This document shows positions 1,648 through 62,976 of a stretch of 64,000 nt of DNA, one piece after another. Source of the stretch: Escherichia phage DCP80; the sequence record PQ671644.1; one strand, 5' to 3'. The translations under genes and the position numbers were made by a program. Below the pieces are notes generated by a model. The model made no database searches, was not told where the DNA came from, and worked only from the letters and a program-made list of their open reading frames with translations. Each line of letters begins with the position of its first letter. Within the stretch, counting starts at the first letter, position 1.

Positions 1648-2097
1648 TTAATAACTCTGCAGAATGAATTTAAAGTTATCAGCAAGCATGCGATTCATTT
1701 CTGAAAGGGTCTGGCAATCAGAACTATGTGAGCGAGTGAACGCCATCGCAATTTGACCTTTACCATAACCAGTTGTCAGGGGTTTCATTTTAGAAACTGG
1801 AACAAACAGGACTTCATAGATAACACCATTGTTCGCCATTGTGCGCGACAGTTGCGAACGCTGTTTGCGGATGTGACTTAATACAGTGTCAAACCCTTGT
1901 TGTGAACGTTGGTTACCAACGTAAAAACGTGCAGCAACAATACGTGATTCGCCTTCACCCTTAACTACAAAATAAAAACCTGGTTGAGTGATAGCTTCTT
2001 TAGTTGGACGCCCTGCAACATAATTACCATTATGGATATAAGCAACAGTGGTAGCGCCAGCATTCAGTACGTCACGACGGGTCATGTAAGTATTCAT
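1648..2097 (-). CDS. ndd: nucleoid disruption protein Ndd
   Basis: 149 aa; PGFYFVV...[14 protein letters not shown]...[11 protein letters not shown]...[20 protein letters not shown]...[12 protein letters not shown] closely matches recalled T4 Ndd; synteny between rIIB region and gene 52. Confidence 0.7.
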
Positions 2098-2140
2098 ATT
2101 AATTTCCTCAGTAAGTTAAAGTTTTGTGCTCCAGTGGGGT

Positions 2141-2170
2141 CATTATACTCTGACCCCAAGAGTATGTACA
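2141..2170 (-). promoter_or_regulatory. early-type promoter with stem-loop around the -10 box
   Basis: Minus-strand TGTACA, 17-nt spacer, TATAAT; GGGTCA/TGACCC inverted repeat flanks the -10 box; lies upstream of ndd. Confidence 0.4.
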
Positions 2171-2515
2171 CTATTTTTGAAGTTGTTCTAAAATAAATCC
2201 GCTGGTGTAAAGGCTTGCATTATACAGGCGGTCAAGAGACAACGAATCCAATCCATAAGCTTCGCGAATTGCATTGATAGCACTCTCATAACTTGTATAA
2301 TAAACATCGCGATAATCGCGGTCCATAGTCATGCGGAACTTAATAAATTTGTAGAAACCAGTTTCAGGGTCCTGATAGAATGCAAATTCTGCAGACATCA
2401 AATTTTTAAGGTTAACAGCTTTTGTACCACCTGAATAACTTAAATCAAATGCTTCTGATACGCTAATCTGTTTAAAGAACATAATGTTGCGATTACCAAA
2501 AAATACTTTAGACAT
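2171..2515 (-). CDS. hypothetical protein
   Basis: 114-aa ORF, same strand and tight spacing as neighbours. Confidence 0.5.
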   Translation of the reverse strand: MSKVFFGNRNIMFFKQISVSEAFDLSYSGGTKAVNLKNLMSAEFAFYQDPETGFYKFIKFRMTMDRDYRDVYYTSYESAINAIREAYGLDSLSLDRLYNASLYTSGFILEQLQK

Positions 2516-2979: not shown

Positions 2980-3251
2980 AATATTATCCTCAAAAGAAAT
3001 AGTTAAAGTAAACACGTACATGGTCAATCATAAAAATAATTGGGAAAATGCTCAGGACAACAAACAATACAAACATGTTCCAAATGGCTTTAAGTAACTT
3101 TTTCATAATCATCTCCAGTAGTTGATAGGTTCATTATACTACAACCACCGGAGATGTACACTCTTTTATGCAAGTTTCATTAATAATAAACTAAAACAAA
3201 CGCAAATTACTGGAATACACAACATCCAGATAAGACACCAGGTTTTGCTGC

Positions 3252-3528: not shown

Positions 3529-3684
3529 TCACGCATAACGATTGTATGTATTTTTACGACAAGCGTAAAATTGACGCTCAGTAACTGCAAAACTTTTTCC
3601 GCGTTGTTGCATTAATTTAAAAAATTCAGTAATATCGCCATTAACTTCAAGGTATAAAGTCATTGCATATTGAGCAGGTTTCAT
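3529..3684 (-). CDS. small hypothetical protein (copy-1-specific)
   Basis: 51-aa ORF MKPAQYAMTLYLEVNGD... translated by eye; below track threshold; the second copy carries a different gene here. Confidence 0.3.
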   Translation of the reverse strand: MKPAQYAMTLYLEVNGDITEFFKLMQQRGKSFAVTERQFYACRKNTYNRYA

Positions 3685-3704
3685 TTTATTCTCCAGTCTG
3701 TTTG

Positions 3705-3760
3705 GTAACTCAGTATGGAATCATTATGCACTGACTCCATACTGATGTACACTACTTTTT
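3705..3760 (-). promoter_or_regulatory. early promoter / stem-loop cassette (PeSL-like)
   Basis: Minus strand aaaaGTAGTGTACA, 17 nt, CATAATG, with CAGTATGGA/TCCATACTG inverted repeat flanking the -10; repeated elsewhere in the window. Confidence 0.45.
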
Positions 3761-3762
3761 AA

Positions 3763-4038
3763 TTAATTGTGCATTTGTTCTTTAACTTCTTTATATGCGC
3801 CAACTGCATTCACGACCCCAGTAAAATCTGCAGTCCCACGATAGAGATAGAAAGCAATTTCAGTCAGGTGGTAGACTTCAAATTCTGAAAGATAAACGAT
3901 AACGTCATAATATGCAACTTGACCCTGGACTTCGTTGAATGCCACATCAAAAATTTCATGGGTTGGAAAATTGATGTTGTTGTTTTTGAGTGCTTGGATA
4001 AGAATTTGTTTGATGTTGTGAGTAGTAACGTGTTCCAT
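3763..4038 (-). CDS. hypothetical protein
   Basis: Probable start MEHVTTHN at 4038 with AAGGA RBS; track ORF 3763-4128 extends into upstream gene. Confidence 0.45.
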   Translation of the reverse strand: MEHVTTHNIKQILIQALKNNNINFPTHEIFDVAFNEVQGQVAYYDVIVYLSEFEVYHLTEIAFYLYRGTADFTGVVNAVGAYKEVKEQMHN

Positions 4039-13775: not shown

Positions 13776-13776
13776 T

Positions 13777-14754: not shown

Positions 14755-15238
14755 ACAAACAATTGCTAAAGATGGCTCGGCTCGTGGTATTGTCCACGGG
14801 CTAGGTCACACGCCTGAATACATTGTATGGATTGGCATGAAAGCTCGGTGTTGCAATCCAACACATATTAGTTATTCTCGATATGGCGGTCGGGGTATCA
14901 CTGTTTGCGATGAATGGCTGCATGATTTTGAAAGATTTTATACAGATATGGGGCCACGACCCACTGACAAACATCAACTTGACCGAACAGATAACGATAA
15001 AGGGTACTCTCCCGATAACTGCAGATGGGTTAGTCCAGGCGAGAATGCTTTAAATAAGCGCCCGTATAATAACAACAAGTCTGGATTTAAAGGAGTCTCG
15101 TTTGATAAACGAGCTTTGAATAAACCATGGCGAGCCACTATTATGCGAAATAAAAAACAAATTCAAGTCGGAGCTTTTGCAACTCCAGAAGAAGCAAATG
15201 AAGCTCGATTAAAATATATGGAAGAACACAATGTCTAA
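14747..15238 (+). mobile_element. free-standing HNH homing endonuclease with AP2-type DNA-binding domain
   Basis: 163 aa; HNH-like DRTDNDKGYSPDNCRWVSPGEN followed by AP2-like SGFKGVSFDKRALNKPWRATIMRNKKQIQVGAFATPEEANEARLKYMEEH; start overlaps rIIB stop (ATGATTAA); absent from the other copy. Confidence 0.7.
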
Positions 15239-15440
15239 AGAAATGTTAGGTTTCCAAGCACGTGTAGTTGAAGAACATGACCAGCTGGTTTTGAAAATTA
15301 ATGCTCTTGAAGAATTTATTAAGGGCGGAGTTTTTGAAACTCTCGATGCTCGTCAACAAGGTCTTTTGATTGCCCAGTTAGATGCAATGGGTGCATATGC
15401 TCATATACTGGCAACTCGTATCTCTTATTTTGGTGAATAA
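15231..15440 (+). CDS. hypothetical protein
   Basis: 69 aa, homolog of 4936-5133; start overlaps HNH stop. Confidence 0.5.
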   Translation: MSKEMLGFQARVVEEHDQLVLKINALEEFIKGGVFETLDARQQGLLIAQLDAMGAYAHILATRISYFGE

Positions 15441-15443
15441 ATT

Positions 15444-15713
15444 ATGATTAAGCATTTCAATGTGTCAGACCGTGACATCAAAGTTTCAAATCTCCGGGGT
15501 CATCATTATGCGGGAATAGTTTACTGCGGTAAGCTCATCAAGCATGAAGGTGATGTTCACTATGGTTGGTTGGAATGTGATGAAGTAGTTGTTGGGGAAT
15601 TCCCTGACCCGAATTCTGATACATTTGATGCTAATGACCGTTTGTATTATGGCGAGCTTCACATCCGTGGAATCGTCGGTATCGATGAGGTCGTAAATGA
15701 TTCAGAAGAGTAA
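15444..15713 (+). CDS. hypothetical protein
   Basis: 89 aa, homolog of 4663-4932. Confidence 0.5.
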   Translation: MIKHFNVSDRDIKVSNLRGHHYAGIVYCGKLIKHEGDVHYGWLECDEVVVGEFPDPNSDTFDANDRLYYGELHIRGIVGIDEVVNDSEE

Positions 15714-16290
15714 AACCTGGGAGCATTTGAAAAAGATGCCCTCCTTTCTTTATACGAAGGAAGACTTAACCCCCGAATCCCTACAAAAGATTGTAGACAC
15801 TGCCAGATATTCATTGCGTAAAGACCCAGGTCAGGACCGTGAGCAAGTCATGCAAAGATGTATGGTGGCCACAATGGCTGAACAAGCTATTGCTAAATGG
15901 ACCTCCGGTTTTTTATGTGGCGGTGATGAAGATTACGATAATCCTTATTCCTTTGCATTTGATGTAGTTTCGAAGGAAGGGGTGAGAATCGAAGTCAAGA
16001 CCCACCAGTCTGGGTCCAAATGGATATCCGTGCATACTGGCCACCAGGGCGATTATCCACATGGTTACGGGATTAATCTTGGTCCTTTTATGCAACACAA
16101 GCTTGCTGACCTTATGATTATGCTCGATGTAAAAGAGACTCTCAAAGGTTATAGATTTAAACCAAAATTCCTTGCTGGACCCGGTGCTTTCGTTCCTGAG
16201 TCTGGTCTTGTGCAGAAGTCACAAGGGGATGGCTGGTACCTCCGTTCTTGTTCAGAAGAAAAATTTCCCTATCACCGGTTTACAAGCTGA
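15697..16290 (+). CDS. hypothetical protein (197 aa)
   Basis: Homolog of 4086-4679. Confidence 0.55.
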   Translation: MIQKSKTWEHLKKMPSFLYTKEDLTPESLQKIVDTARYSLRKDPGQDREQVMQRCMVATMAEQAIAKWTSGFLCGGDEDYDNPYSFAFDVVSKEGVRIEVKTHQSGSKWISVHTGHQGDYPHGYGINLGPFMQHKLADLMIMLDVKETLKGYRFKPKFLAGPGAFVPESGLVQKSQGDGWYLRSCSEEKFPYHRFTS

Positions 16291-16337
16291 ACCAACTGTG
16301 TAATAATGTCCTCATACCAACAAATAAGGACATTATC

Positions 16338-16613
16338 ATGGAACACGTTACTACTCACAACATCAAACAAATTCTTATCCAAGCACTCAAAAACAACAAC
16401 ATCAATTTTCCAACCCATGAAATTTTTGATGTGGTATTCAACGAAGTCCAGGGTCAAGTTGCATATTATGACGTTATCGTTTATCTTTCAGAATTTGAAG
16501 TCTACCATCTGACTGAAATTGCTTTCTATCTCTATCGTGGGACTGCAGATTTTACTGGGGTCGTGAATGCAGTTGGCGCATATAAAGAAGTTAAAGAGCA
16601 AATGCACAATTAA
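16338..16613 (+). CDS. hypothetical protein
   Basis: Probable start MEHVTTHN after AAGGA RBS; homolog of 3763-4038. Confidence 0.45.
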   Translation: MEHVTTHNIKQILIQALKNNNINFPTHEIFDVVFNEVQGQVAYYDVIVYLSEFEVYHLTEIAFYLYRGTADFTGVVNAVGAYKEVKEQMHN

Positions 16614-16672
16614 TTAAAAAGTAGTGTACATCAGTATGGAGTCAGTGCATAATGATTCCATACTGAGTTACC
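16612..16672 (+). promoter_or_regulatory. early promoter / stem-loop cassette (PeSL-like)
   Basis: TGTACA 16625-16630, 17-nt spacer, CATAAT 16648-16653; CAGTATGGA 16632-16640 pairs with TCCATACTG 16657-16665. Confidence 0.45.
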
Positions 16673-16688
16673 AACCTGGAGAAACAAA

Positions 16689-16952
16689 ATGAAATTTAAA
16701 TTTTATTATATTAAGCATAAAGTTACTGGGGAGTTTATTGCATTTACAACTTCATCCAATAATCAAGGTGATACTTTTACTTCATTGTTCTTATCTAGAT
16801 GGGATTCAGACCAGCCTTATTTGTCCACAAAAGAGCATCTTCAACGTATGGCGAAGGGCGAGCTAAACGATTCTTGGGATAATATTGTGAATAATTGTAT
16901 CAAGAAAGCTATCCAAGAAAATCAACTTGAAATCATTGAGGTGGAATTGTGA
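16689..16952 (+). CDS. hypothetical protein, YYxKHKVTG family paralog (copy-2-specific)
   Basis: 87 aa MKFKFYYIKHKVTG...; tandem paralog of the next gene; not present at the equivalent site in copy 1. Confidence 0.5.
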   Translation: MKFKFYYIKHKVTGEFIAFTTSSNNQGDTFTSLFLSRWDSDQPYLSTKEHLQRMAKGELNDSWDNIVNNCIKKAIQENQLEIIEVEL

Positions 16953-17215
16953 ATATTAAATTATATTACGCCAAGCACAAAGTTACAGGTATGGTTGTTG
17001 CTGCTATGTATGACGCGTCAGGCGATGGTGATGATGTTATTACAGAGTTATCTCTTTCTGATTGTAAATTTCTTCGCCCGTTGGTTGCATCAAAGCGTGA
17101 TTTAAAAAAGCTTATTGATGGTAAGCTGGACAATATTGATGGTATAGATATTTTTTATGACCTCCGCGTCGCATTGTCTGATGGATTGATTGAAATCAAA
17201 GAGGTGATATTTTGA
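16949..17215 (+). CDS. hypothetical protein, YYxKHKVTG family
   Basis: 88 aa, homolog of 3252-3518. Confidence 0.5.
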   Translation: MNIKLYYAKHKVTGMVVAAMYDASGDGDDVITELSLSDCKFLRPLVASKRDLKKLIDGKLDNIDGIDIFYDLRVALSDGLIEIKEVIF

Positions 17216-17304
17216 GCAGCAAAACCTGGTGTCTTATCTGGATGTTGTGTATCCCAGTAATTTGCGTTTGTTTTAGTTTATTATTAATGAAACTTGCATA
17301 AAGA

Positions 17305-17332
17305 GTGTACATCTCCGGTGGTTGTAGTATAA
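17305..17332 (+). promoter_or_regulatory. early-type promoter
   Basis: GTGTACAT, 17-nt spacer, TATAAT; mirror of the copy-1 element near 3130-3160. Confidence 0.4.
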
Positions 17333-17486
17333 TGAACCTATCAACTACTGGAGATGATTATGAAAAAGTTACTTAAAGCCATTTGGAACATGTTTATACT
17401 GTTTGTTGTCCTGAGCATTTTCCCAATTGTTTTTATGATTGACCATGTACGTGTTTACTTTAACTATTTCTTTTGAGGATAATACT

Positions 17487-17633
17487 ATGATAGTTATGAA
17501 AAAGTTTAAAGAATATCATTGCTATGAATGTGGCAAAAAGATTGATTCTATTCATTCATTAAACGTCTTTTCTTTTGATAATTTAAACTATGCACACATT
17601 TGGTGCCTTCGTGGAATGACTAAATTTAACTGA
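17487..17633 (+). CDS. small zinc-ribbon-like protein (copy-2-specific cassette)
   Basis: 48 aa MIVMKKFKEYHCYECGKK...HIWC (CxxC...HxxC spacing); flanked by duplicated GAGGATAATA(C/T)TATG junction. Confidence 0.4.
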   Translation: MIVMKKFKEYHCYECGKKIDSIHSLNVFSFDNLNYAHIWCLRGMTKFN

Positions 17634-17643
17634 GGATAATATT

Positions 17644-17790
17644 ATGAATTACAATTCACACTTTCAGAAATCCAATCGCCGCTTTGACTTTATGTTCAAG
17701 TTTATTGTGGCAATGATTATCCTGATTTTCATTGGTGCCATTGCAATGATTGGTTTCCAGGTCTGGATTGCTGCTGAAGTATTCACACAA
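17644..17790 (+). CDS. small membrane protein, 3' end lost in gap
   Basis: MNYNSHFQKSNRRFDFMFKF..., homolog of 2773-2979. Confidence 0.45.
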
Positions 17791-17800
17791 NNNNNNNNNN
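17791..17800. other. assembly gap (N-run)
   Basis: 10 Ns; gene content changes abruptly across it. Confidence 0.95.
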
Positions 17801-25708: not shown

Positions 25709-26002
25709 TTATTCACCTGTAACCCATTGAACAATTTTGCTATTGTCAAATGAAGCATCGCAATACAGAATATAGTTATACTGCATAACGTCACCAGAAG
25801 ACAATTGGTCAGATACTTCTTTAACCATATCAGGGCGGTCACGTTTGGTTATGTTCATGATATCAGCACGAATCTGGGTTTCAACTTCAGATTGCTCTGC
25901 TGTCATAGACCATTCACAAAGGTTTTTATCAAGCCCAGCAGTAACTGGAGCTGTACCACATGATGCTACGGTAAGAATTGCTGCAATAATTAACTTTTTC
26001 AT
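25709..26002 (-). CDS. sp: Spackle-like periplasmic protein (lysozyme inhibitor / superinfection exclusion)
   Basis: 97 aa; signal peptide MKKLIIAAILTVASC, then ...DKNLCEWSMTAEQSEVETQIRADIMNI...GDVMQYNYILYCD resembles recalled T4 Sp; lies between 41 and 61. Confidence 0.6.
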   Translation of the reverse strand: MKKLIIAAILTVASCGTAPVTAGLDKNLCEWSMTAEQSEVETQIRADIMNITKRDRPDMVKEVSDQLSSGDVMQYNYILYCDASFDNSKIVQWVTGE

Positions 26003-26062
26003 AATGTTCTCCTCAGTAGTTGATATGGATAATATACTGCATTATCCCTTTGATGTAAACTG

Positions 26063-26266
26063 TTATTTTTCGTTAGAACGATAATCACATTCAAAAACTT
26101 TATTGCCATTAACAAAGGCTTTAACCAGCGCATTATTCACTTCTGCATACTGCACTGTAACCCATTCAATCATATTTTTGTCACTGACATCCAGGGCGGT
26201 TTCTTTGGTAAACATATTACCATTTTCAAACCAACCAATAAACACTACGTTCTCTAATTTATACAT
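26063..26266 (-). CDS. dmd: Dmd-like antitoxin (discriminator of mRNA degradation)
   Basis: 67 aa; VVFIGWFENGNMFTKE...QYAEVNNALVKAFV resembles recalled T4 Dmd; synteny near sp. Confidence 0.5.
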   Translation of the reverse strand: MYKLENVVFIGWFENGNMFTKETALDVSDKNMIEWVTVQYAEVNNALVKAFVNGNKVFECDYRSNEK

Positions 26267-26584
26267 TTAGATTTCCTCACAAAACGCCCAAGCGGCGTGA
26301 TAAACTGTTGCGCCTTTAGTATCATTTAAACAAACCACGTCAACAGGTGCAATCACACGATAAAGACGGGGTTCTCCTCCATATGAGCGAGCTGCTCTTC
26401 CTGCATAGATACGCGCCAAACCAATATCTTCAGTAAAAAACACACGCCCTAAATTTTTCTTACGTCCAACTTCTGACAGAACACCAGTTGCATCAGGAGG
26501 ACAAAGCATATTTTGGATTCCAGCATTAGAGCTTGACCCATGATAATAAACTTTGTATTCTGCCTTGCAATCAATGGTTTTCAT
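26267..26584 (-). CDS. small protein with PARP-like NAD-binding motifs (candidate minimal ADP-ribosyltransferase-fold protein)
   Basis: 105 aa; YYHGSSSNAGI (H-G-S), GRVFFTEDIGLARIYAG (aromatic-rich strand), GGEPRLYRV (candidate catalytic E); motif-level only. Confidence 0.35.
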   Translation of the reverse strand: MKTIDCKAEYKVYYHGSSSNAGIQNMLCPPDATGVLSEVGRKKNLGRVFFTEDIGLARIYAGRAARSYGGEPRLYRVIAPVDVVCLNDTKGATVYHAAWAFCEEI

Positions 26585-26620
26585 TTTATTCTCCAGTAGT
26601 TGATAGAGTCATTATAACAT

Positions 26621-26644
26621 AAGAAAAAGGGGCTGTAAGCCCCT
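26621..26644 (-). terminator. rho-independent terminator
   Basis: Minus strand AGGGGC-TTACA-GCCCCT followed by TTTTTCTT. Confidence 0.5.
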
Positions 26645-26652
26645 TTGTTCAC

Positions 26653-26955
26653 TTACGCCAACTCATAGTTGTGCATAGTCAGACAACGAATTTTCCCAGT
26701 AGTTGGGTGCATAACAGTCACACTAATTGTGTAATCATCACACACGTTAACAAAAGGTTCAGCGATAACATATACTGCCCCACCCGCCAACAGGTATTCA
26801 CGAAGAGAGCTGCGAACAGATGAAGGTTGAACATCGCTTTTGAGCTTTATTAATTTACCAGTTTGAATGCCTGATGCGATAAGAGCAGCACAGTTTTCAT
26901 CACGGCGAGCGAATTGTCCAAAATAGTAACGATTCATGTCGGTTTGATTAAACAT
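26653..26955 (-). CDS. hypothetical protein
   Basis: 100-aa ORF. Confidence 0.45.
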   Translation of the reverse strand: MFNQTDMNRYYFGQFARRDENCAALIASGIQTGKLIKLKSDVQPSSVRSSLREYLLAGGAVYVIAEPFVNVCDDYTISVTVMHPTTGKIRCLTMHNYELA

Positions 26956-27033
26956 ATGGTTTTCCTTTTAACAGTTGGTTTATTGTGTAACTCAGTATGA
27001 AATCATTATGTCCTAAGACAAGGGGCTTGTACA

Positions 27034-27282
27034 CTATTTTAATTCATTAATTAAATGAAAATCTTGTGCATTGAAAGTAATGAAAAAATAATCATTCCCT
27101 TCAACTGAAGCATGACAGGCAACACTACACCAGCGCCTTGCTCTGTTCAAGGAGCAATCCAAAATTTTAAAAGGCTTCAGACCAACAATGGCAGCTGTTC
27201 TTTTATTATGCTCACAAATATCAGCATACTTTTGGAGAGCTTCTTCAGATTTGAACTGGTAATGCACATTAACTAATAACAT
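27034..27282 (-). CDS. hypothetical protein
   Basis: 82-aa ORF, Cys-rich. Confidence 0.45.
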   Translation of the reverse strand: MLLVNVHYQFKSEEALQKYADICEHNKRTAAIVGLKPFKILDCSLNRARRWCSVACHASVEGNDYFFITFNAQDFHLINELK

Positions 27283-27347
27283 TTTATTATCCTCATCAGT
27301 AGTTGATGGGATAATAGTACACCCTTTTTATGGTGATGTAAACCTCT

Positions 27348-27376
27348 AAAATGAAAAAGACCCGAAGGGTCTTTAG
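27348..27376 (-). terminator. rho-independent terminator with UUCG tetraloop after gene 41
   Basis: Minus strand AAAGACCC-TTCG-GGTCTTT then TTCATTT; overlaps gp41 stop. Confidence 0.5.
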
Positions 27377-31531: not shown

Positions 31532-31748
31532 TCAAATTCATATAAAATTTAGCGTCTTCCGGGTGCATCCCTTCGCAATATTCATTTTGCATAAAGCGGG
31601 TAAGGTCTTCAAGAGGACCTTGAACTTCAATTTGAATACTAAAGAATTGGGTATCTTTAATGTAAGTCATACACAAAGAAGGATACCGATTACGAATAAC
31701 TTCGTAAGTGTATTCAAAATCAACGATATCAATATTAACCTTAGCCAT
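31521..31748 (-). CDS. hypothetical protein
   Basis: 75-aa ORF. Confidence 0.4.
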
Positions 31749-31810
31749 TTTATTTTCCTCATGTAGTTGATAGGTCTATAATAACATAATCATAGACCCG
31801 TTGTAAACTG

Positions 31811-32173
31811 CTATTTGAAAGCTTTTTGCAGAAGTTCAATGATTTGGTCGACGTTATTAGCATCTACAACACAATTAATAGAAACCGCCCCCGAAGGTGT
31901 TTTTGTATAATTGGAGTATTCACGGAAGCAATAAAACTCTTCTTCACTAAGTTCAAAATAATCATCACCCATACCATCATCATTATAGATTGCACCATTA
32001 GCACAAATGATTTCGGTTACATAATCATAGCCGTCTGCACTTGATATTGATTTAACTTCAAACCAACCGCCATTTTCTTGGATGATGTCGACCATACTAG
32101 CATTCGATGAACTAATATCAATGAAAGATTTAATACGATGTGGATTGAACTCATATTTTTTGCCGATTTCCAT
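31811..32173 (-). CDS. hypothetical protein, paralog family with 31094-31531
   Basis: 120 aa; DDYFELSEEEF and C-terminal IIELLQKAF. Confidence 0.5.
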   Translation of the reverse strand: MEIGKKYEFNPHRIKSFIDISSSNASMVDIIQENGGWFEVKSISSADGYDYVTEIICANGAIYNDDGMGDDYFELSEEEFYCFREYSNYTKTPSGAVSINCVVDANNVDQIIELLQKAFK

Positions 32174-32250
32174 TTTTATTTCCTCAGTTGTTATCAGTAG
32201 TTGATGGAACCATTATGCCTTAGCTCAAGGGACTTGTACACTACTTTTTG

Positions 32251-32278
32251 AAAATAAAAAAGGGACCCGAAGGTCCCC
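32251..32278 (-). terminator. rho-independent terminator with UUCG tetraloop after gene 32
   Basis: Minus strand GGGACC-TTCG-GGTCCC followed by TTTTTTATTTT. Confidence 0.6.
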
Positions 32279-36520: not shown

Positions 36521-36600
36521 TTAGAAACACGTACAATATCACCAGCTTCAACTTTCATAATTTTCTCTCTTGGTTAATAAGTTTATTCTCCAGCAGGGTC

Positions 36601-36629
36601 ATTATACTCTGACCCCAAGAGTTTGTACA
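36601..36629 (-). promoter_or_regulatory. early-type promoter with stem-loop
   Basis: Minus strand TGTACA, 17 nt, TATAAT with GGGGTCAGAG/GACCC partial inverted repeat. Confidence 0.4.
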
Positions 36630-36632
36630 CAC

Positions 36633-37388
36633 TTAATTAAAAATTTCAACAACCATGGAACGTGGGACGACAGTAAATTCACCAGCATGGACAACGTTCA
36701 GGAGTTCAACACCATCTTCAATCCACTGATCTGTTACCCAACCACAAATGGAACTGTTAAATGGGCGTTTGATTTGAACTGGTTTACATAGCAAGTCAAT
36801 AGGGTCACCCAGTTCGCTAACTTCTTTCAGCAGTACAGATTCACGCGGATAAAGGATAGCTTCAAGATTGTCACCTGATTCATTAACCGCAGTAAATTCA
36901 AAGATGCTTTGGTGATTGTGGTACTTAACTGTTTTAACGGTAAATGGAGCAAATCCAAAAATACCTTTTAGTACACGCCAACCAGCATGCATTGCAACGG
37001 TCTTTCCAAACTGACTGGCATCTTCAATAAGCTGATAGGTTTTACCAACTTTGATAGGAGTTTCTTCAACTTCTTTGAAGAGTTCAATCTCAGCTTCATA
37101 AACCATAATTTTTTCTACTTCATTTGTATCAAGGCGACGTGCATGTAGAATATATGCTTTATCAAACCAGTTACTTTTTACAAAAGTTTCAACAATAAAT
37201 TCACCTTCGCCTAAAGCATCAGTCAGAGTATTATACCCAGAAACCATAGCTGCGTTTTGAATAATAGGTTCAATCAGTTGATAAGTTTTGTTAATTTCAA
37301 TAGTCATATTTTGTTTCTCAAGTTTTAATGGTTTAATTGGACGAACATACATACTTACAATATCAAAGTCAATAAATTCTGGTTTCAT
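36633..37388 (-). CDS. hypothetical protein with internal tandem repeat
   Basis: 251 aa; two KTYQLIE-containing modules (INKTYQLIEPIIQNA... and VGKTYQLIEDASQFG...). Confidence 0.55.
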   Translation of the reverse strand: MKPEFIDFDIVSMYVRPIKPLKLEKQNMTIEINKTYQLIEPIIQNAAMVSGYNTLTDALGEGEFIVETFVKSNWFDKAYILHARRLDTNEVEKIMVYEAEIELFKEVEETPIKVGKTYQLIEDASQFGKTVAMHAGWRVLKGIFGFAPFTVKTVKYHNHQSIFEFTAVNESGDNLEAILYPRESVLLKEVSELGDPIDLLCKPVQIKRPFNSSICGWVTDQWIEDGVELLNVVHAGEFTVVPRSMVVEIFN

Positions 37389-37693
37389 TATGCAACCTTA
37401 TTGAACATCGCCAGTTGATTAGGTTGTACAACCATAATTTCACGACGACCTTTTGCGTTTGACACGTTTAGGTAGATGCCTTTGTTCATGTCTGTTTCTT
37501 TATCATATACCGCAATTTTATTGACAGTAAAGATTTTACCACGAATATTTGCAAATGCACATTCAAACGCTTTAGTCAGACCTGCTTCAGCAGCTTGAAG
37601 AGCAGACATTTCATATTGTTGGCCAATTTCAAAAGAAGTAATCATTTTGTTGTCCTCATCAGTAGTTGATGAGATGATTATGTCTCTTTCCAT
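37388..37693 (-). CDS. hypothetical protein
   Basis: 101-aa ORF downstream of dexA. Confidence 0.45.
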   Translation of the reverse strand: MERDIIISSTTDEDNKMITSFEIGQQYEMSALQAAEAGLTKAFECAFANIRGKIFTVNKIAVYDKETDMNKGIYLNVSNAKGRREIMVVQPNQLAMFNKVA

Positions 37694-37712
37694 TGACCTT
37701 GTACACTACTTT

Positions 37713-38396
37713 TTATCGTTTTTTCGGTAAAGATAACGGGTCTGCATCTTCTTCGGAAGGAACTTCATCCAAACCAAGGGCATAGCGCTGGGCATACTTC
37801 AACATCAAAATATCTTTCGCGCAGTCATGTACCGAATCGTGCGCCACGAATCCATCTAAAGCCCCTTTCGGTAATGGGGTTTCACACATCTTACGGACGA
37901 GTGACAAGGCTTCGATTGCCGTCCTGATATCACGCTGGTTCCAGAATACAACCGGCTCCAGGCCATAAGTGTTCAATTCACGCTCAGGAATCCCCTCATT
38001 GCGCTGTAGGTCGCGGATAAGGTCGACAAACAACGGGAAGTCAAAAGACATTCCACGGCACCACATAAGGCTTTCGTATTTGTTAATTCCATTACCGTTC
38101 AGATAGTCAATCGCCTGTTGGATACCGGTCAGAGTATCAACATCATGTGCAGAAGGAGCCAGGTTAACACGAGCTTCTGCTGATTGCTTTTTCCACCAAC
38201 CCATGGTTGTTGTGTCGAACAGACGCTTACCTTTTTGATATTCGAGACTGAACTTAATACGTTTGCCGCGATTAACCAGGGTTTCGAATGATTCCACAAT
38301 AGCAGGGTCAGATTCGAATGTAATCAGAGCCAGGTCAATAACGGCTCCCTTCGAGCCGTTTCCCAGAGTTTCAAAGTCAATAATAGCATCAATCAT
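37713..38396 (-). CDS. dexA: exonuclease A DexA (DnaQ-like 3'-5' exonuclease)
   Basis: 227 aa; IIDFETLG...AVIDLA, WCRGMSFDFP.LVDLIRD, FWNQRDIRT.IEAL.LVR, LDGFVAHDS.HDCAKDI.MLKYA.RYA.GL...PSEE..DPLSLP match recalled T4 DexA. Confidence 0.85.
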   Translation of the reverse strand: MIDAIIDFETLGNGSKGAVIDLALITFESDPAIVESFETLVNRGKRIKFSLEYQKGKRLFDTTTMGWWKKQSAEARVNLAPSAHDVDTLTGIQQAIDYLNGNGINKYESLMWCRGMSFDFPLFVDLIRDLQRNEGIPERELNTYGLEPVVFWNQRDIRTAIEALSLVRKMCETPLPKGALDGFVAHDSVHDCAKDILMLKYAQRYALGLDEVPSEEDADPLSLPKKR

Positions 38397-40246: not shown

Positions 40247-40990
40247 TTAACCTCTAATCAGTTTAAAAATTGACGCGTTCAAAGGTAGACCTTTTTTCAG
40301 TTTAAGGCGGTCAATGAATGACAACTTATCTAAACGCTCCAGACCTTGAATAATTTTATCATACATATCGTAACGCGTTTCAGCGTCAGATGATTTCATT
40401 TTCAGACGCCAGTCAGGACCACCCATAACCATTTTCAGCCCGCGTTGACTAGTTCCGATGGAAGCCATTTGTCCATGGATACGAGCCTTGACTGCAATCA
40501 CAGAAGGGGTGGTATCTTTAGCGCCACTTTTATAAAGCTCTTTTAAATGTTTTTGACGCTTCTTGATTCCACGTTCGGTATCTTTAATATTTTTAACAAT
40601 TTTGCGAATTTTATAATAGTCAGCAGGAGTTACTTTAAAACTATTGGGCATCTTAGAACCGCCATTAATACGCACCGCCAAACGAGTCTGCGCACGTTTA
40701 AGTTCATCAAGAGATAAATCAGCACGTAAACCGTTGTACTTAGTTTTGACAGGGATAACATTGCCTTCAATATAACCTATATCATTGTTAAAGCGTTCAA
40801 AGGAAACTTTATCTTGAGTTGAATTTTCATCAAAACGTTCACCAGAATACGCACAGAATTCTTGTTTCAAAAGATTGGCGATATACTTACTAGACAGATT
40901 GAAATCCTTGTTACGACGTTTTGCAGACGTTTTGGTATGCTCGCGACGTTTGTAAACTTTCAATTCAAACTCTTCTTTTGACATATTCAT
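40247..40990 (-). CDS. Srd-like protein (position-based)
   Basis: 247-aa ORF between modA-like gene and dda, where T4 srd sits; some resemblance to recalled Srd (SAKRRNKDFNLSSKYIANLL...CAYSG..FD.....DK.SFER.NND.GY..GNVIPVK..YN) and C-terminal LKLKKGLPL. Confidence 0.45.
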   Translation of the reverse strand: MNMSKEEFELKVYKRREHTKTSAKRRNKDFNLSSKYIANLLKQEFCAYSGERFDENSTQDKVSFERFNNDIGYIEGNVIPVKTKYNGLRADLSLDELKRAQTRLAVRINGGSKMPNSFKVTPADYYKIRKIVKNIKDTERGIKKRQKHLKELYKSGAKDTTPSVIAVKARIHGQMASIGTSQRGLKMVMGGPDWRLKMKSSDAETRYDMYDKIIQGLERLDKLSFIDRLKLKKGLPLNASIFKLIRG

Positions 40991-41146
40991 GATATTTTTC
41001 TCATCTTACGGACGATTGAAAACTCAGTATGGATTCATTATACACTATACATCTTTTATGTACACTACTTTTTAGCCTTTAACGCTTTTATTTTTACTGT
41101 GTATAATGGTTCTAAGGTCTTTGGCCTTTTGTTAACCCAGAATACT

Positions 41147-42621: not shown

Positions 42622-42915
42622 TTATTCACCTGTAACCCATTGAACAATCTTGCTGTTGTCAAATGAAGCATCGCAATACAGAACATAGTTATACTGCATA
42701 ACATCACCAGAAGTCAATTGGTCAGATACTTCTTTAACCATATCAGGACGGTCACGTTTAGTAATATTCATGATGTCAGCATAAATCTGATGTTCAACAT
42801 CAGCCTGGTCAGCAGTCATGGACCACTCGCAAAGGTCTTTATCAAGTCCAGCAGTAACTGGAGCTGTGCCACATGATGCTACGGTAAGAATTGCTGCGAT
42901 TAATAACTTTTTCAT
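42622..42915 (-). CDS. sp: Spackle-like periplasmic protein (copy 2)
   Basis: 97 aa, homolog of 25709-26002. Confidence 0.6.
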   Translation of the reverse strand: MKKLLIAAILTVASCGTAPVTAGLDKDLCEWSMTADQADVEHQIYADIMNITKRDRPDMVKEVSDQLTSGDVMQYNYVLYCDASFDNSKIVQWVTGE

Positions 42916-42973
42916 TTCAATCTCCTCAGTAGTTGATAGGGATAATATACTGCATTATCCCTATGTTGTACAC

Positions 42974-43177
42974 TTATTTTTCGTTAGAACGATAATCATA
43001 TTCAAAAACTTTATTGTCATTAACAAAGGCTTTAACCAGTGCATTATTCACTTCTGCATACTGCACTGTAATCCATTCAATCATATTTTTGTCACTGACA
43101 TCTAGCGCGGTTTCTTTGGTAAACATATTACCATTTTCAAACCAACCAATAAACACTACGTTCTCTAATTTATACAT
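42974..43177 (-). CDS. dmd: Dmd-like antitoxin (copy 2)
   Basis: 67 aa, homolog of 26063-26266. Confidence 0.5.
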   Translation of the reverse strand: MYKLENVVFIGWFENGNMFTKETALDVSDKNMIEWITVQYAEVNNALVKAFVNDNKVFEYDYRSNEK

Positions 43178-43495
43178 TTAGATTTCCTCACAAAACGCCC
43201 AGGCGGCGTGATAAACTGTTGCACCTTTAGTGTCATTTAAACAAACCACGTCAACAGGTGCAATCACACGATAAAGACGGGGTTCTCCTCCATATGAGCG
43301 AGCTGCTCTTCCTGCATAGATACGCGCCAAACCAATATCTTCAGTAAAAAACACACGCCCTAAATTTTTCTTACGCCCAACTTCTGACAGAACACCAGTT
43401 GCATCAGGAGGACAAAGCATATTTTGGATTCCAGCATTAGAGCTTGAGCCATGATAATAAACTTTGTATTCTGCCTTGCAATCAATGGTTTTCAT
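43178..43495 (-). CDS. PARP-like-motif small protein (copy 2)
   Basis: 105 aa, identical in translation to 26267-26584. Confidence 0.35.
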   Translation of the reverse strand: MKTIDCKAEYKVYYHGSSSNAGIQNMLCPPDATGVLSEVGRKKNLGRVFFTEDIGLARIYAGRAARSYGGEPRLYRVIAPVDVVCLNDTKGATVYHAAWAFCEEI

Positions 43496-43563
43496 TTTAT
43501 TCTCCAGTAGTTGATAGGGTCATTATAACATAAGAAAAAGGGGCTTACAGCCCCTTTGTTCAC

Positions 43564-43866
43564 TTACGCCAACTCATAGTTGTGCATAGTCAGACAACGA
43601 ATTTTCCCAGTAGTTGGGTGCATAACAGTCACACTAATTGTGTAATCATCACACACGTTAACAAAAGGTTCGGCGATAACATATACTGCCCCACCTGCCA
43701 ACAGGTACTCACGAAGAGAGCTGCGAACAGATGAAGGTTGAACATCGCTTTTGAGCTTTATTAATTTACCAGTTTGAATGCCTGATGCGATAAGAGCAGC
43801 ACAGTTTTCATCACGGCGAGCGAACTGACCAAAATAGTAACGGTTCATATCGGTTTGATTAAACAT
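43564..43866 (-). CDS. hypothetical protein (copy 2)
   Basis: 100 aa, homolog of 26653-26955. Confidence 0.45.
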   Translation of the reverse strand: MFNQTDMNRYYFGQFARRDENCAALIASGIQTGKLIKLKSDVQPSSVRSSLREYLLAGGAVYVIAEPFVNVCDDYTISVTVMHPTTGKIRCLTMHNYELA

Positions 43867-43944
43867 ATGGTTTTCCTTTTAACAGTTGGTTTATTGTGTA
43901 ACTCAGTATGGAATCATTATGTCCTAAGACAAGGGGCTTGTACA

Positions 43945-44193
43945 CTATTTTAATTCATTAATTAAATGAAAATCTTGTGCATTGAAAGTAATGAAAAAAT
44001 AATCATTCCCTTCAACTGAAGCATGACAGGCAACACTACACCAGCGCCTTGCTCTGTTCAAGGAGCAATCCAAAATTTTAAAAGGCTTCAGACCAACAAT
44101 GGCAGCTGTTCTTTTATTATGCTCACAAATATCAGCATACTTTTGGAGAGCTTCTTCAGATTTGAACTGGTAATGCACATTAACTAATAACAT
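43945..44193 (-). CDS. hypothetical protein (copy 2)
   Basis: 82 aa, homolog of 27034-27282. Confidence 0.45.
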   Translation of the reverse strand: MLLVNVHYQFKSEEALQKYADICEHNKRTAAIVGLKPFKILDCSLNRARRWCSVACHASVEGNDYFFITFNAQDFHLINELK

Positions 44194-44281
44194 TTTATTA
44201 TCCTCATCAGTAGTTGATGGGATAATAGTACACCCTTTTTATGGTGATGTAAACCTCTAAATGAAAAAGACCCGAAGGTCT

Positions 44282-45721
44282 TTAGAATTTCATTTGAGCA
44301 GCAAGGTCGTCCAGGTCGCTCCTGTTGACCCTGGTTTGTCTATTCATTTCAGCCTGACGATTCATCTCACCGGTGGCTTCTTTAACCGTAGGGCCTTGTT
44401 TAGGAGCTGAATCATCATCAACCTCGTACCAGCGCTGATTACCTTTCTTAACACCCATCTTGAATTTATTATAGTAGTTCTTATCGCCATAACGAGACTT
44501 AAGCTGTTTGATTAACTGTAGTCCCATTTGAGCGAATTCTTCGGTCTCAACAACACCCAACATAAAGTCGGCCGTGTGAGCAATACCAAAGGATTCTGCG
44601 ATGTCAGCCATATCAATCTCAGCTGCAACGTTCGCACCCCTGGTTGTCTGCGCTGCAGTCCACAGGACTACATTTTTCTCAACAGCCAGACCACGAAGTT
44701 CTTCTGCAACCATCTTAATCAGGCCGTAACTGTTTTCGGTAAACGTTTTCAGTCTTGAGCTTGCACAGATTGCCAGGTAGTCAACAATAATCACATCCGG
44801 CACAAACCCTTGCTTCAGTTTGTATTCATTCAATAATGCACGGAAGGTATCTGCATGAGCGCCGCCAGTTGGATATTGTTTTATCTTCAGAGTCCCAAGA
44901 GTCCCGGAAGCACGCCACTTTTCCATCTTAGCTTTATATTCCGCCCATGATATATGACCTTCATCAATATCATCCAGAGATACATCCAGCAAGTTGGCAT
45001 CAATACGTTTGGCACATACTTCTTCAGCCATTTCCATGCTTATATAAAGAACATTATGACCAGTCTGAAGATAGTCAGCAGCTAACGAACAAAGTCCAAG
45101 AGATTTACCGACGTTTGTCCCGGCCAGTAAAACGTTCTCTGTACCGTACTCAACCCCACCCTTTGTGATTTTATTCAGGATGTTAATACGGAACGGAACC
45201 TTCTTCGATTTGTTCAGATAAGTCTGGAATCGAGCTTCGTAATCGTTTAACCAGTCATGGCCCAGAGCAGAGTCAAAACAGATAGACAATGCATCGCGCA
45301 TGATGTCGGGGATAGCACCAATATCCGGGATTCGTTTATCACGTTTATCTTTCGGAAGTTCGGCATTACTCTGGATTTCGATAATCCTGGATGTGGCATT
45401 GAACATCGCAGACTTCTGCACATACTTCTCGGTTTCTTTAACCAACCATTCCTGGTCTTCTGGAGTATCGGCCAGGACTCCTAAGAGTTTCTTTGTGCCT
45501 TCATATTCGACTTCAGAAAGGTCAGAACTGTCGAGCGCGATATCAAGTGCAGTCTTAGTTGGTACCGCTTGATATTCTTTTACGTGTTCGTTAATCGTAT
45601 TAAAAAGAGTCTTCGCGGGACCCTTTTCAAAATATGTGTTATTCAGATACGGCCAGACTTTAACAAAATATTCCTTGTTAAAGAGTAGCTGGGATAAAAT
45701 AGTTTCTACCACTTCCACCAC
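44282..45721 (-). CDS. 41: replicative DNA helicase gp41 (copy 2)
   Basis: 479 aa, near-identical to 27373-28812. Confidence 0.9.
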   Translation of the reverse strand: MVEVVETILSQLLFNKEYFVKVWPYLNNTYFEKGPAKTLFNTINEHVKEYQAVPTKTALDIALDSSDLSEVEYEGTKKLLGVLADTPEDQEWLVKETEKYVQKSAMFNATSRIIEIQSNAELPKDKRDKRIPDIGAIPDIMRDALSICFDSALGHDWLNDYEARFQTYLNKSKKVPFRINILNKITKGGVEYGTENVLLAGTNVGKSLGLCSLAADYLQTGHNVLYISMEMAEEVCAKRIDANLLDVSLDDIDEGHISWAEYKAKMEKWRASGTLGTLKIKQYPTGGAHADTFRALLNEYKLKQGFVPDVIIVDYLAICASSRLKTFTENSYGLIKMVAEELRGLAVEKNVVLWTAAQTTRGANVAAEIDMADIAESFGIAHTADFMLGVVETEEFAQMGLQLIKQLKSRYGDKNYYNKFKMGVKKGNQRWYEVDDDSAPKQGPTVKEATGEMNRQAEMNRQTRVNRSDLDDLAAQMKF

Positions 45722-61760: not shown

Positions 61761-61786
61761 AGGACCCTTCGGGGTCCTTTTTTATT
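61761..61786 (+). terminator. rho-independent terminator with UUCG tetraloop
   Basis: GGACCC-TTCG-GGGTCC followed by TTTTTTATTTT. Confidence 0.65.
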
Positions 61787-61797
61787 TTAAAAAGTAG

Positions 61798-61850
61798 TGT
61801 ACAACCAGATGGTCATAAGACATAATGATTCCATACTGAGTTACCAAATA
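61798..61850 (+). promoter_or_regulatory. early promoter / stem-loop cassette (PeSL-like)
   Basis: TGTACA 61798-61803, 17-nt spacer, CATAAT 61821-61826, then conserved GATTCCATACTGAGTTACCAA leader. Confidence 0.45.
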
Positions 61851-61867
61851 AACAAACGGAGAATAAA

Positions 61868-62074
61868 ATGTTAGAATTAATCAAAGCTGCTGGTGAAAAA
61901 GGTCTGATGGTTAACACTCGTGACCCTGAGCAACGTCAAGCATTTGGTGAGTTAAAAGCCAAAGGTCTGGTTAAAGCATCCCTTGGTATTGGTAATGCTT
62001 TGCGTGTGACTTTGACCCCTGCAGGTAAAGCAATGTTCTTCCCTAAACCATTACCAAAACGTCGTCGCAAGTGA
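61868..62074 (+). CDS. hypothetical small basic protein
   Basis: 68-aa ORF, basic C-terminus KRRRK, GGAGAATAAAATG RBS context. Confidence 0.45.
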   Translation: MLELIKAAGEKGLMVNTRDPEQRQAFGELKAKGLVKASLGIGNALRVTLTPAGKAMFFPKPLPKRRRK

Positions 62075-62080: not shown

Positions 62081-62383
62081 ATGAAGAAGTATGAACTTGA
62101 CATGATTGAGGCATGTCTGAAATCTGCTGACCATTTTAAGTTGAAAATGCACAAGTTAAGAGGAATGGTCAAAACTCCAGAAGAGAAGAAGCGATATGCT
62201 CTTAAGGAGAAATGTAAAGCTCTTATCATGATGGATAAGCTGCAAATGGTCGCCGCAGAAGCTCACAGGACACGTAAAGCCGAGGCCCTTGGTGTTTATA
62301 TGGCAGAGCAGCTTCATCGTGCACAGCAAGCCGTTAAGAGCGTCTGGTTCAGCGGTGAAAATACTGAAAGAACTTTTAATTAA
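62081..62383 (+). CDS. hypothetical protein
   Basis: 100-aa ORF. Confidence 0.45.
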   Translation: MKKYELDMIEACLKSADHFKLKMHKLRGMVKTPEEKKRYALKEKCKALIMMDKLQMVAAEAHRTRKAEALGVYMAEQLHRAQQAVKSVWFSGENTERTFN

Positions 62384-62386
62384 ATG

Positions 62387-62440
62387 TGTACATAGTATGG
62401 GGATAGACGTATAATGTTCCCATACTGAGTTACCAAATAC
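62387..62440 (+). promoter_or_regulatory. early promoter / stem-loop cassette (PeSL-like)
   Basis: TGTACA 62387-62392, 17-nt spacer, TATAAT 62410-62415; CATAGTATGGGGA pairs with TTCCCATACTGAG. Confidence 0.45.
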
Positions 62441-62451
62441 TGGAGAATAAA

Positions 62452-62976
62452 ATGGACGCAAAATCAATCTTTAATCTGATTAATTACAATAATGGTAATT
62501 TTAAATCAGAAGCGCAAAGCAAGTTCTTTAATGATGTTGCTTGTGCAGGTGAGATTACAGTATCAGGTGGTCAGACTTATAAAAACGCCTGGAACTGGAT
62601 TGTGACTGTTGATTCAGTTGGTATTGTTGATGTGTATAAAAACACCAACAAAAACCGCTCTTTGTTCTGGTCAAGAGAGACTAATGCAGAATATCAAGCG
62701 ACAAGAGCGAAGAAAAATATGCCTACTGAATCTGATGTACAAAACATCAAATCAGATATCCAATATTATGATGGTCTGATTGCTGAACAACAAGCGGTGC
62801 TTGATAAGTTCAATGAAATCAAGGCGTGTAAAGAGATTCCTGAATTCATGAGGGAATCAGTTAATGAACAATACAATCTCACTTCAGAGCGTATTGAAAC
62901 CTATACCAAACAAAGAGCAGAGCGCCAGGTACTCCTTCAGAAGTTTGAAGAGCGTTTAAAGACGGTTCTCGCATAA
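62452..62976 (+). CDS. hypothetical protein
   Basis: 174-aa ORF. Confidence 0.5.
   Translation: MDAKSIFNLINYNNGNFKSEAQSKFFNDVACAGEITVSGGQTYKNAWNWIVTVDSVGIVDVYKNTNKNRSLFWSRETNAEYQATRAKKNMPTESDVQNIKSDIQYYDGLIAEQQAVLDKFNEIKACKEIPEFMRESVNEQYNLTSERIETYTKQRAERQVLLQKFEERLKTVLA

Follow-up and report, generated by a model that had tools for sequence, protein, structure and literature searches.

Putative early-promoter cassettes in a VR7/SP18-like T4-type phage assembly and their place in gene shuffling

At positions 16612-16672 of a 64,000-nucleotide stretch of Escherichia phage DCP80 (PQ671644.1; the whole stretch is referred to here as the window), a promoter-like motif with an inverted repeat around its -10 box stands ahead of a small open reading frame (ORF). 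A preliminary description of the same sequence had placed this motif at 13 sites and likened it to the promoter and stem-loop cassettes proposed to mediate modular gene shuffling in T4-type phages. Two questions follow for this locus: what the repeated element is, and how far it accounts for differences in gene content between related phages.

A recurrent cassette in a mixed assembly

Interpretation of the window depends on its make-up. Ten N-runs split the 64 kb into 11 pieces, sorted longest first (8993, 8750, 6942 ... 4465 nt), with the window's end cutting the last of them; it is not one contiguous genome, and consists of contigs from a fragmented assembly joined end to end by N-runs. Self-comparison of the window identified three pairs of pieces that are ~96% identical (1-8993 reversed against 10925-17790; 24894-30121 against 41801-47030, 5.2 kb; 18987-24365 against 47081-52285 reversed), and therefore a co-assembly of at least two related Gaprivervirus (VR7/SP18-like, T4-type) strains. 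What had been described as two haplotypes are separate contigs of this mixed assembly. The nearest public genomes are those of the Gaprivervirus phages VR7, SP18, phage 212 and the TH series, and the pieces correspond to early regions dispersed over VR7: rIIA/rIIB-denB-ndd, 39-motB-dexA-dda-srd, 61-41-uvsX, 44-47, 32-frd and nrdC. These Gaprivervirus relatives are T4-type coliphages of ~40% G+C.

The motif was confirmed at all 13 sites listed previously, in each case on the same strand as the ORF that follows, and seven further copies were found: three missed loci (26000-26074, 26582-26650 and 31746-31820, all on the minus strand) and four second-strain copies (42913-42988, 43493-43561, 43864-43960 and 44191-44285). 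The resulting 20 copies represent 14 independent loci in ~45 kb of unique sequence when strain duplicates are counted once, six copies being second-strain duplicates. From 5' to 3', each element comprises an A-tract, a GT(G/T)TACA -35 region, a 16-18 nt spacer and a -10 box of (C/T)ATAAT or a near variant, followed by 'CC', a predicted +1 A ~7 nt on, a leader of 20-50 nt, GGAG or GAGG, and ATG. An ORF with SD and ATG lies 25-75 nt downstream in the same orientation for all window copies. The stop codon of the upstream gene often falls inside the A-rich tract; ahead of the focal -35, for example, ORF 16248-16613 terminates within the AT-rich tract TAATTAAAAAG. The copies, with their hairpins, are as follows.

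16610..16691, plus: focal cassette, reading ttaaaaaGTAGTGTACA-tcagtatggagtcagtg-CATAAT-gattCCATACTGAGTTACCAAcctGGAGaaacaaaATG
16625-16630 and 16648-16653, plus: focal -35 TGTACA and -10 CATAAT, preceded by an A-tract and separated by a 17-nt spacer
~16660 to 16689, plus: downstream part of the focal cassette, with predicted +1 A at ~16660, leader CCATACTGAGTTACCAA, GGAG, and ATG at 16689
16631-16666, plus: focal hairpin, 14 bp with the -10 in its loop; MFE -21.5 kcal/mol, z -7.3
16689..16952, plus: variable first ORF behind the focal cassette, 87 aa, a diverged paralogue of the next gene (16949-17215)
3682..3766, minus: other-strain copy of the focal cassette, same promoter and leader; first downstream ORF of 51 aa, not 87 aa
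17291..17362, plus: cassette before an ndd.4-like 38-aa ORF; TGTACA-N16-TATAAT, leader ATCAACTACTGGAGA
17312-17354, plus: hairpin of the ndd.4 cassette, spacer (TCTCCGGTGGTTG) paired with the leader including the SD; z -5.5
3104..3175, minus: other-strain copy of the ndd.4 cassette
2095..2185, minus: cassette before an ndd-like 149-aa ORF; TGTACA-N17-TATAAT; VR7 orthologue at 165020
2110-2164, minus: hairpin around the -10 of the ndd cassette, GGGGTC/GACCCC; z -4.05
26000..26074, minus: cassette before a 97-aa ORF; TTTACA-N17-TATATT, ATCAACTACTG leader; weak hairpin
42913..42988, minus: second-strain copy of 26000-26074, with TGTACA; 12-bp hairpin ATAGGGATAAT/ATTATCCCTAT at 42972
26582..26650, minus: composite terminator-promoter; TGn-TATAAT at 26616-26611, ATCAACTACTGGAG leader; z -3.8
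26646-26626, minus: intrinsic-terminator hairpin of that composite, AAAGGGGC-TTA-GCCCCTTT and a T-run
43493..43561, minus: second-strain copy of the composite 26582-26650
26953..27048, minus: cassette before a 100-aa ORF; TGTACA-N17-CATAAT, CATACTGAGTTACAC leader; no significant hairpin
43864..43960, minus: second-strain copy of 26953-27048
27280..27374, minus: cassette ahead of gene 41; TTTACA-N17-TACTAT, ATCAACTACTG leader
27374-27356, minus: terminator hairpin directly upstream of the TTTACA of the gene 41 cassette
44191..44285, minus: second-strain copy of 27280-27374
31746..31820, minus: cassette with TTTACA-N18-TATTAT, ATCAACTACATGAGG leader; arms GGTCTAT/ATAGACC around the -10
32171..32255, minus: cassette downstream of gene 32; GTAGTGTACA-N17-CATAAT, ATCAACTACTG leader; no significant hairpin
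36556..36645, minus: cassette before motB, 37 nt from a contig end
36575-36623, minus: hairpin around the -10 of the motB cassette; z -3.0
37643..37720, minus: cassette with GTAGTGTACA-N17-CATAAT; 7-bp hairpin within the leader, CTCATCA-ACTAC-TGATGAG
40988..41080, minus: cassette before an srd-like 247-aa ORF; CCATACTGAGTT leader; -10 without a surrounding hairpin
61783..61870, plus: cassette before a 68-aa ORF; GTAGTGTACA-N17-CATAAT, CCATACTGAGTTACCAA leader; weak hairpin, z -1.6
62372..62454, plus: cassette before a 174-aa ORF; TGTACA-N17-TATAAT, CCCATACTGAGTTACCAA leader
62393-62427, plus: hairpin of the 174-aa-ORF cassette, 13 bp, z -3.6; an additional C in the 3' arm has its counterpart in an additional G in the 5' arm

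Chance as the origin of the motif was ruled out by an excess of more than 100-fold over shuffled sequence: TGTACA-N16-18-[CT]ATAAT occurs 13 times in the window, against a mean of 0.09 and a maximum of 1 in 300 dinucleotide shuffles, and GTAGTGTACA with at most one mismatch occurs nine times against 2.7 expected. A generic sigma70 scan was uninformative (62 matches against 50 expected). The conserved leader of the preliminary description is likewise present, and falls into two main families, CCATACTGAGTTACC at five of the 14 loci and ATCAACTACTG at seven, with neither at 2095-2185 and 36556-36645; these families, also written AUACUGAGUUACC... and AUCAACUACUG..., cover most leaders.

Probable early-promoter identity and kinship with known elements

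Complete genomes allow the element to be defined beyond the window. VR7 has 37 predicted elements, 36 of them on the early-gene strand, and only two predicted elements occur in its late block at 73-122 kb. Across 36 VR7 elements the consensus is aaAAAgtaGTgTACA-N17-tATAATgatcCcA, with an upstream tract of aaAAAgta in the 14 nt before the -35. Spacers are mostly of 17 nt (28/36; 16 nt in six and 18 nt in two), the -35 hexamer is TGTACA in 18 and TTTACA in nine, the -10 hexamer is TATAAT in 18 and CATAAT in 11, and the SD is GGAG in 16 and GAGG in 14. A single 81-nt query returned 7-12 matches per genome in most Gaprivervirus records, and each genome has 7-8 exact copies of the 23-mer ATAATGATTCCATACTGAGTTAC, all on one strand; a scan of IMG/VR with this 23-mer matched three isolate genomes only. 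Morganella phage MP1, from another genus, carries the same element (GTAGTGTACA and CCCATACTGAGTTACC) with leader and hairpin kept, annotated as a promoter by its depositors; besides MP1, the family is limited to Gaprivervirus at the DNA level. An assembly artefact was ruled out, as the same elements occur in finished genomes and contig ends show no enrichment near elements in the window.

Published T4-type early promoters have an A-rich segment at -42, GTTTAC, TATAAT and C residues at -3 to -1 (PMC1524935, PMC2988021), and comparison with the UP / GTTTAC / (TGn) / TATAAT consensus gave agreement in sequence, in orientation and in placement before early genes. The closest comparison set is that of the T4 early 'uber' UP/-35/TGn/-10 promoters (Miller et al. 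2003; Nolan et al. 2006, PMC1524935; Hinton 2010, PMC2988021), with which the elements share the A-rich, UP-like tract at ~-42, a G before the -35 hexamer, an xTTTAC-like -35, a TATAAT-like -10, C residues before +1, the early strand, and a position 5' of early genes and novel ORFs. They differ from the T4 promoters as follows: half of the copies have G, not T, as the second hexamer base, which makes the palindrome TGTACA; about a third begin the -10 with C; and conservation runs at least 15 nt into the transcript. TGTACA agrees with TTGACA at only 4/6 positions. Some copies have a TGn extended -10, as at 26616-26611. Very probably, then, the elements are sigma70-dependent early promoters of a VR7/SP18-like T4-type phage, packaged as PeSL-type cassettes with a start site predicted from the sequence.

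Middle-promoter identity, chance and assembly artefact carry next to no probability as alternatives. MotA-dependent middle promoters, in which a box (a/t)(a/t)(a/t)TGCTTtA centred at -30 replaces the -35 (PMC1524935), might be entertained because the reference genome has a motA homologue, just as the patchwork of contigs might invite a reading of the elements as chance or artefact. However, the elements have GT(G/T)TACA at sigma70 spacing, with neither a MotA box nor TGCTT, and MotA promoters were rejected on that absence; the excess over shuffles and the recurrence in finished reference genomes count against chance and artefact alike.

The resemblance to PeSL cassettes drawn in the preliminary description is sound, as the elements satisfy the published sequence-level definition. 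PeSLs consist of an AT-rich tract, sigma70-like -35 and -10 boxes, a stem-loop, an SD and an ATG; they are enriched in hyperplastic early regions, and their stem-loop takes one of five published positions, mostly between the boxes or overlapping the -10 (PMC2839356, PMC4122927). Those of RB49 and phi1 have promoter and attenuator activity in reporters and recombine into mini-circles (Arbiol et al. 2010, PMC2839356), and PeSLs have also been described from T4/PST and KVP40/nt-1 (Comeau et al. 2014, PMC4122927). The elements described here have the AT-rich tract, within which the upstream stop codon often lies, boxes ~17 nt apart, a stem-loop, and the SD and ATG; they cluster in early, hyperplastic regions and adjoin some variable ORFs. 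As with the RB49 mini-circles, they occasionally recombine, and the exchange point then falls between the -10 and the SD. Not all of the promoters qualify as full PeSLs, since ~40% of copies have no significant hairpin. There are also differences: the genus is Gaprivervirus; the -35 is TGTACA or TTTACA where the published box is TTGACA, and is further from TTGACA than that of RB49; stems are formed by the spacer and the initial transcribed sequence instead of by a G-run and a C-run; there are two strongly conserved leader families; and the association with indels is weak against a gene-junction null. The literature searched held no description of PeSLs in Gaprivervirus, only of 'PeSL-like' sequences near JS98 g43, and none of VR7 or JS98 early promoters or of a TGTACA -35, although an earlier description is possible.

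The hairpin around the -10 box

An inverted repeat bracketing the -10 had been presented as part of the motif. It proved significant at five window loci (z <= -3), but only about half of the loci have it: in the folding test it was not significant at 61804, 26010, 26980, 32190, 37650 and 41010. Two more such repeats can be read from the sequence, of 12 bp at 42972 (minus) and 7 bp at 31746-31820 (minus). Two window loci carry a true intrinsic-terminator hairpin, one overlapping the -35 and the other immediately upstream of it; in the former, the -35-like CTTACA (26639-26634) covers the 3-nt loop and neighbouring stem bases of the 26646-26626 terminator. Having no U-tract, the hairpins that bracket the -10 do not count as canonical intrinsic terminators, and identity with a known RNA family was rejected, Rfam covariance models giving no matches in the window at gathering score.

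In VR7, 21/36 elements have a spacer complementary to the bases that follow the -10 (p <= 0.05 against spacer-only shuffles), with a mean z of -2.26 over the 36 (Wilcoxon 2e-6), so that roughly 55-60% of copies have a hairpin and ~40% have no significant one. As the spacer can pair with the first transcribed bases, RNA that enters from upstream would fold a hairpin around the -10, and RNA from the predicted +1 is without the 5' arm and essentially unstructured (-1.2 to -3.4 kcal/mol on folding). An effect on an SD is predicted at 17306, where read-through RNA across 17295-17385 folds at -26.6 kcal/mol with the SD GGAGA buried, against -1.2 kcal/mol for the element's own transcript. Such an arrangement has precedent in the RBS masking of T4 genes e, soc, 49 and I-TevI, where long early transcripts fold so that a hairpin covers the SD, and translatable RNA comes from a promoter within that hairpin. 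At 17291-17362, and at VR7 20733, 51022, 58140 and 166012, the predicted start likewise lies inside the hairpin with the SD in the 3' arm, and only promoter-proximal RNA would have a free SD. The internal promoter is, however, early and sigma70-type here and late and gp55-dependent in T4, and SD masking is predicted in only ~4-6 of 36 copies.

Does the repeat act in RNA, on duplex DNA, or not at all? It is centred on the -10 and spans the region that must melt, its 3' arm is conserved sequence belonging to the leader families, and the mechanism by which T4 early promoters are shut off is still unknown (PMC2988021), all of which would suit an operator bound by a dimeric phage or host protein to shut off early promoters, or a cruciform affecting how the promoter opens. 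This is nonetheless highly unlikely: the arms CAGTATGG, CCAGTAGTTG, GGGGTC and GGGATA are unrelated between elements, leaving no common half-site, ~40% of the promoters have no repeat, and stems contain G-T pairs and fold more stably on the sense strand than on the antisense in 15/21 hairpins (p 0.0045), a bias that points to RNA and not to duplex DNA. A somewhat less remote alternative, yet still improbable, is that hairpins and shared leaders are functionless, the decaying relics of a few ancestral cassettes spread by duplication and gene conversion. When orthologous copies from five strains are compared, 38 pairs have changed, of which 29 are broken and one is compensatory, and stems do not evolve significantly more slowly than the unpaired spacer (3.4% against 6.0%, p 0.14); comparison at this scale therefore does not demonstrate selection for pairing. 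The hairpin-free ~40% of copies and the 7-12 near-identical -10/leader copies per genome, as expected from concerted evolution, also suit decay. A single duplicated ancestor would not, however, account for the unrelated arms at different elements, and paralogous copies show matched differences (GATTCC/GGAGTC, GTTCCC/GGGGAT and TATCCC/GGGATA); the sense-strand stability bias and the retention of leader and hairpin in MP1, a different genus, likewise speak against relics.

The reading preferred here, of early promoters with a hairpin that forms in read-through RNA, leaves one feature over, as promoter function alone does not account for the conserved leaders. In a speculative reading, of about the same low probability as the relic explanation, hairpin and start site together form a transcript-origin switch across the early genes of the Gaprivervirus group: folding would attenuate RNA from upstream, stabilise its 3' end or, in the ATCAACTACTGGAG class, mask it from translation, and element-born RNA would have an open, standardised 5' leader. 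The retention of the leaders across genera (Gaprivervirus and MP1) suggests, within this reading, that they could be recognition sequences for a factor that coordinates early mRNA translation or decay.

Gene-content differences and the role of recombination

According to the preliminary description, the elements stand precisely where the gene content of the two haplotypes changes, which the data bear out in part only. Within the window one of four indels abuts an element and the other three do not.

14747-15238: HNH endonuclease gene; no element nearby
First-ORF swap behind the focal element: left boundary at the leader/SD; other side element-free
17491-17630: 140-nt ORF insertion; element ~130 nt upstream, 17-nt SD/ATG repeat TGAGGATAATAyTATGA flanking
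20043-20237: 195-nt ORF insertion; no element nearby

Behind the focal promoter and leader, the other strain has an unrelated 51-aa ORF (3684-3529), and VR7 has no ORF in that place. The 5.2-kb pair 24894-30121 / 41801-47030 contains four elements and no indel.

A wider set of breakpoints was drawn from comparison of VR7 with the complete genomes of TH54, TH15 and TH41, yielding 112 unique breakpoints in early regions. Enrichment near elements is seen only against a uniform null, under which 3.7 breakpoints would fall within 15 nt of an element and 17 do. The choice of null matters, as 96 of the 112 breakpoints are at gene junctions: a breakpoint occurs at 16 of 36 junctions that have an element and at 62 of 195 that do not (OR 1.7, p 0.18), and with the tolerance varied and window contigs added the junction-level OR ranges only from 1.2 to 2.2 (p 0.04-0.56). 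Genes directly behind an element vary somewhat more often (10/35 against 28/199; OR 2.4, p 0.045); these first genes are no smaller than other early genes.

Exchange between elements is documented. In the textbook case, VR7 has element-ORF146c-element where TH15 and TH41 have one chimeric element, the crossover falling inside the shared leader CCATACTGAGTTACCAAATAAA; a second element-element indel lies at VR7 20770-21195. Direct repeats derived from elements were found at both ends of only 2/47 clean indels. At other repeat-flanked events the repeats are the conserved coding sequence for the N-termini of internal proteins, or SD/ATG microhomology, and many gene-content events are homing-endonuclease genes. 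The published mechanism therefore operates here and explains a minority of events, and the modular-shuffling reading stands in a much weaker form than claimed: element-element recombination does occur in the genus.

That the cassettes are primarily recombination modules, with PeSL mini-circle exchange as the main cause of gene-content differences, is accordingly unlikely, though of the alternatives weighed here it retains the best chance. To its credit are the two element-element events, one with its crossover in the shared leader; the ORF swap that starts exactly at the leader/SD of the focal element; an 82-aa ORF cassette (27034-27282) that is absent from VR7 and bracketed by elements 26953-27048 and 27280-27374; the excess of variable first genes (p 0.045); and the experimental demonstration of mini-circles in RB49/phi1 (PMC2839356). 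Set against these are the rarity of element repeats at both ends of clean indels, the modest junction-level odds, the three of four in-window indels that start away from elements, the indel-free haplotype pair with its four elements, the many events that are homing-endonuclease genes or have SD/ATG microhomology only, and contig ends that show no enrichment near elements. Like morons or integron-like cassettes, the units comprise a small ORF with its own promoter and sometimes a terminator, lying between conserved genes; unlike them, they have no integrase or attC site and are co-oriented with their neighbours, and homology is supplied by the shared regulatory sequence itself.

In the early-promoter reading favoured here, host RNA polymerase would use the element promoters as soon as infection begins. 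The hairpin, or in some copies a terminator on or before the -35, would insulate small transcription units from upstream read-through; the hairpin could also act as a protective 3' end of the upstream message, and in a minority of copies it may hide the SD, only in read-through RNA, with element-initiated RNA lacking the 5' arm and staying open. As copies share 25-60 nt, the phage recombination system occasionally makes crossovers between them, adding or removing an ORF cassette as a side effect behind a small share of gene-content differences, and not as their main driver.

The analysis adds a further T4-like genus to those with PeSL-type promoter/stem-loop cassettes, and examines the PeSL shuffling idea against a fair null of gene junctions instead of random positions. 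Homing endonucleases and short SD/ATG or coding repeats explain more events than the cassettes, which appear from sequence comparison to be a minor though real recombination substrate and to mark only a minority of gene-content differences between related phages. Sequence features give good support to the view that they are early promoters, and the hairpins may serve in read-through insulation, 3' stabilisation and occasional SD masking. For VR7/SP18-like therapeutic coliphages, the elements provide a usable consensus for annotating early transcription units.

Contig structure of the window

The window is made up of 11 pieces, arranged in order of decreasing length and divided by 10 runs of N, with adjacent pieces mapping to unrelated parts of the genome of VR7 (NC_014792), the complete Gaprivervirus reference:

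8994-9040, 17791-17800, 24743-24760, 30887-30940 and 36511-36520: N-runs 1 to 5
41760-41800, 47031-47080, 52286-52300, 57005-57040 and 61506-61540: N-runs 6 to 10

The window consists of contigs from an assembly of mixed strains, joined end to end, so ORFs that apparently cross an N-run, such as 53252-57241, are artefacts.

Strain differences and repeats at gene junctions

Directly behind the cassette at 16610-16691 (+), two ORFs of 87 and 88 aa lie in tandem (16689-17215, +) as diverged paralogues with a common start, M/V-x-I/F-K-L/F-YY-x-KHKVTG; the 88-aa ORF begins at a GTG overlapping the stop of its 87-aa neighbour, and both the other strain and VR7 carry a single copy of the pair. Further along, a 140-nt insertion within 17474-17646 (+) contains a CxxC-bearing ORF of ~47 aa (MIVMKKFKEYHCYECGKK...) and is bounded by a 17-nt direct repeat, TGAGGATAATAyTATGA, which is itself a stop/SD/start sequence; ribosome-binding junctions therefore seem to be short recombination substrates too. 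A further gene-junction repeat of this non-promoter kind is the 52-nt sequence at 24901-24952 and 25262-25313 (90% identity; further copies at 41808-41859 and 42169-42220), which, in two neighbouring minus-strand genes of the 61.2 / ORF039c region, spans 3' end, SD and start junction. Among the internal-protein genes of VR7, indels at 57320-57616 and 57022 are delimited by a 33-nt repeat encoding the conserved N-terminus MKTYQEFITES, which recalls the way genes of this class are described as being shuffled in relatives of T4.

The polymorphism at 14747-15238 (+) looks like a homing-endonuclease indel with no relation to the promoter cassettes: a gene for a 163-aa HNH endonuclease, homologous to VR7ORF292c, lies between rIIB and denB.1 in one strain and is missing from the other, between 5133 and 5162.

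Promoter elements: a possible mosaic edge, a start codon and leader conservation

Inter-strain identity falls to 86-90% between 25794-26094 and 42705-43005, in a patch that stops close to the upstream border of the 26000-26074 element, with 96-100% identity further upstream; the -35 of this element reads TTTACA in one strain vs TGTACA in the other. This patch may mark a mosaic recombination boundary.

The annotated start of VR7ORF013c (VR7 7970-8275; window 37388-37693, -) falls within a promoter element, as does the start of the longest ORF that can be read there in the window. Translation more likely begins at the ATG at 37645, which has an SD upstream and gives a product of 85 aa.

Morganella phage MP1 (KX078569) carries the same GTAGTGTACA -35 and the same CCCATACTGAGTTACC leader at 403-484 and 766-854, one of these two copies also having a CTCAGTATG/CATACTGAG hairpin. 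Because MP1 belongs to another genus, Gualtarvirus, conservation of the leader reaches well past the genus Gaprivervirus.
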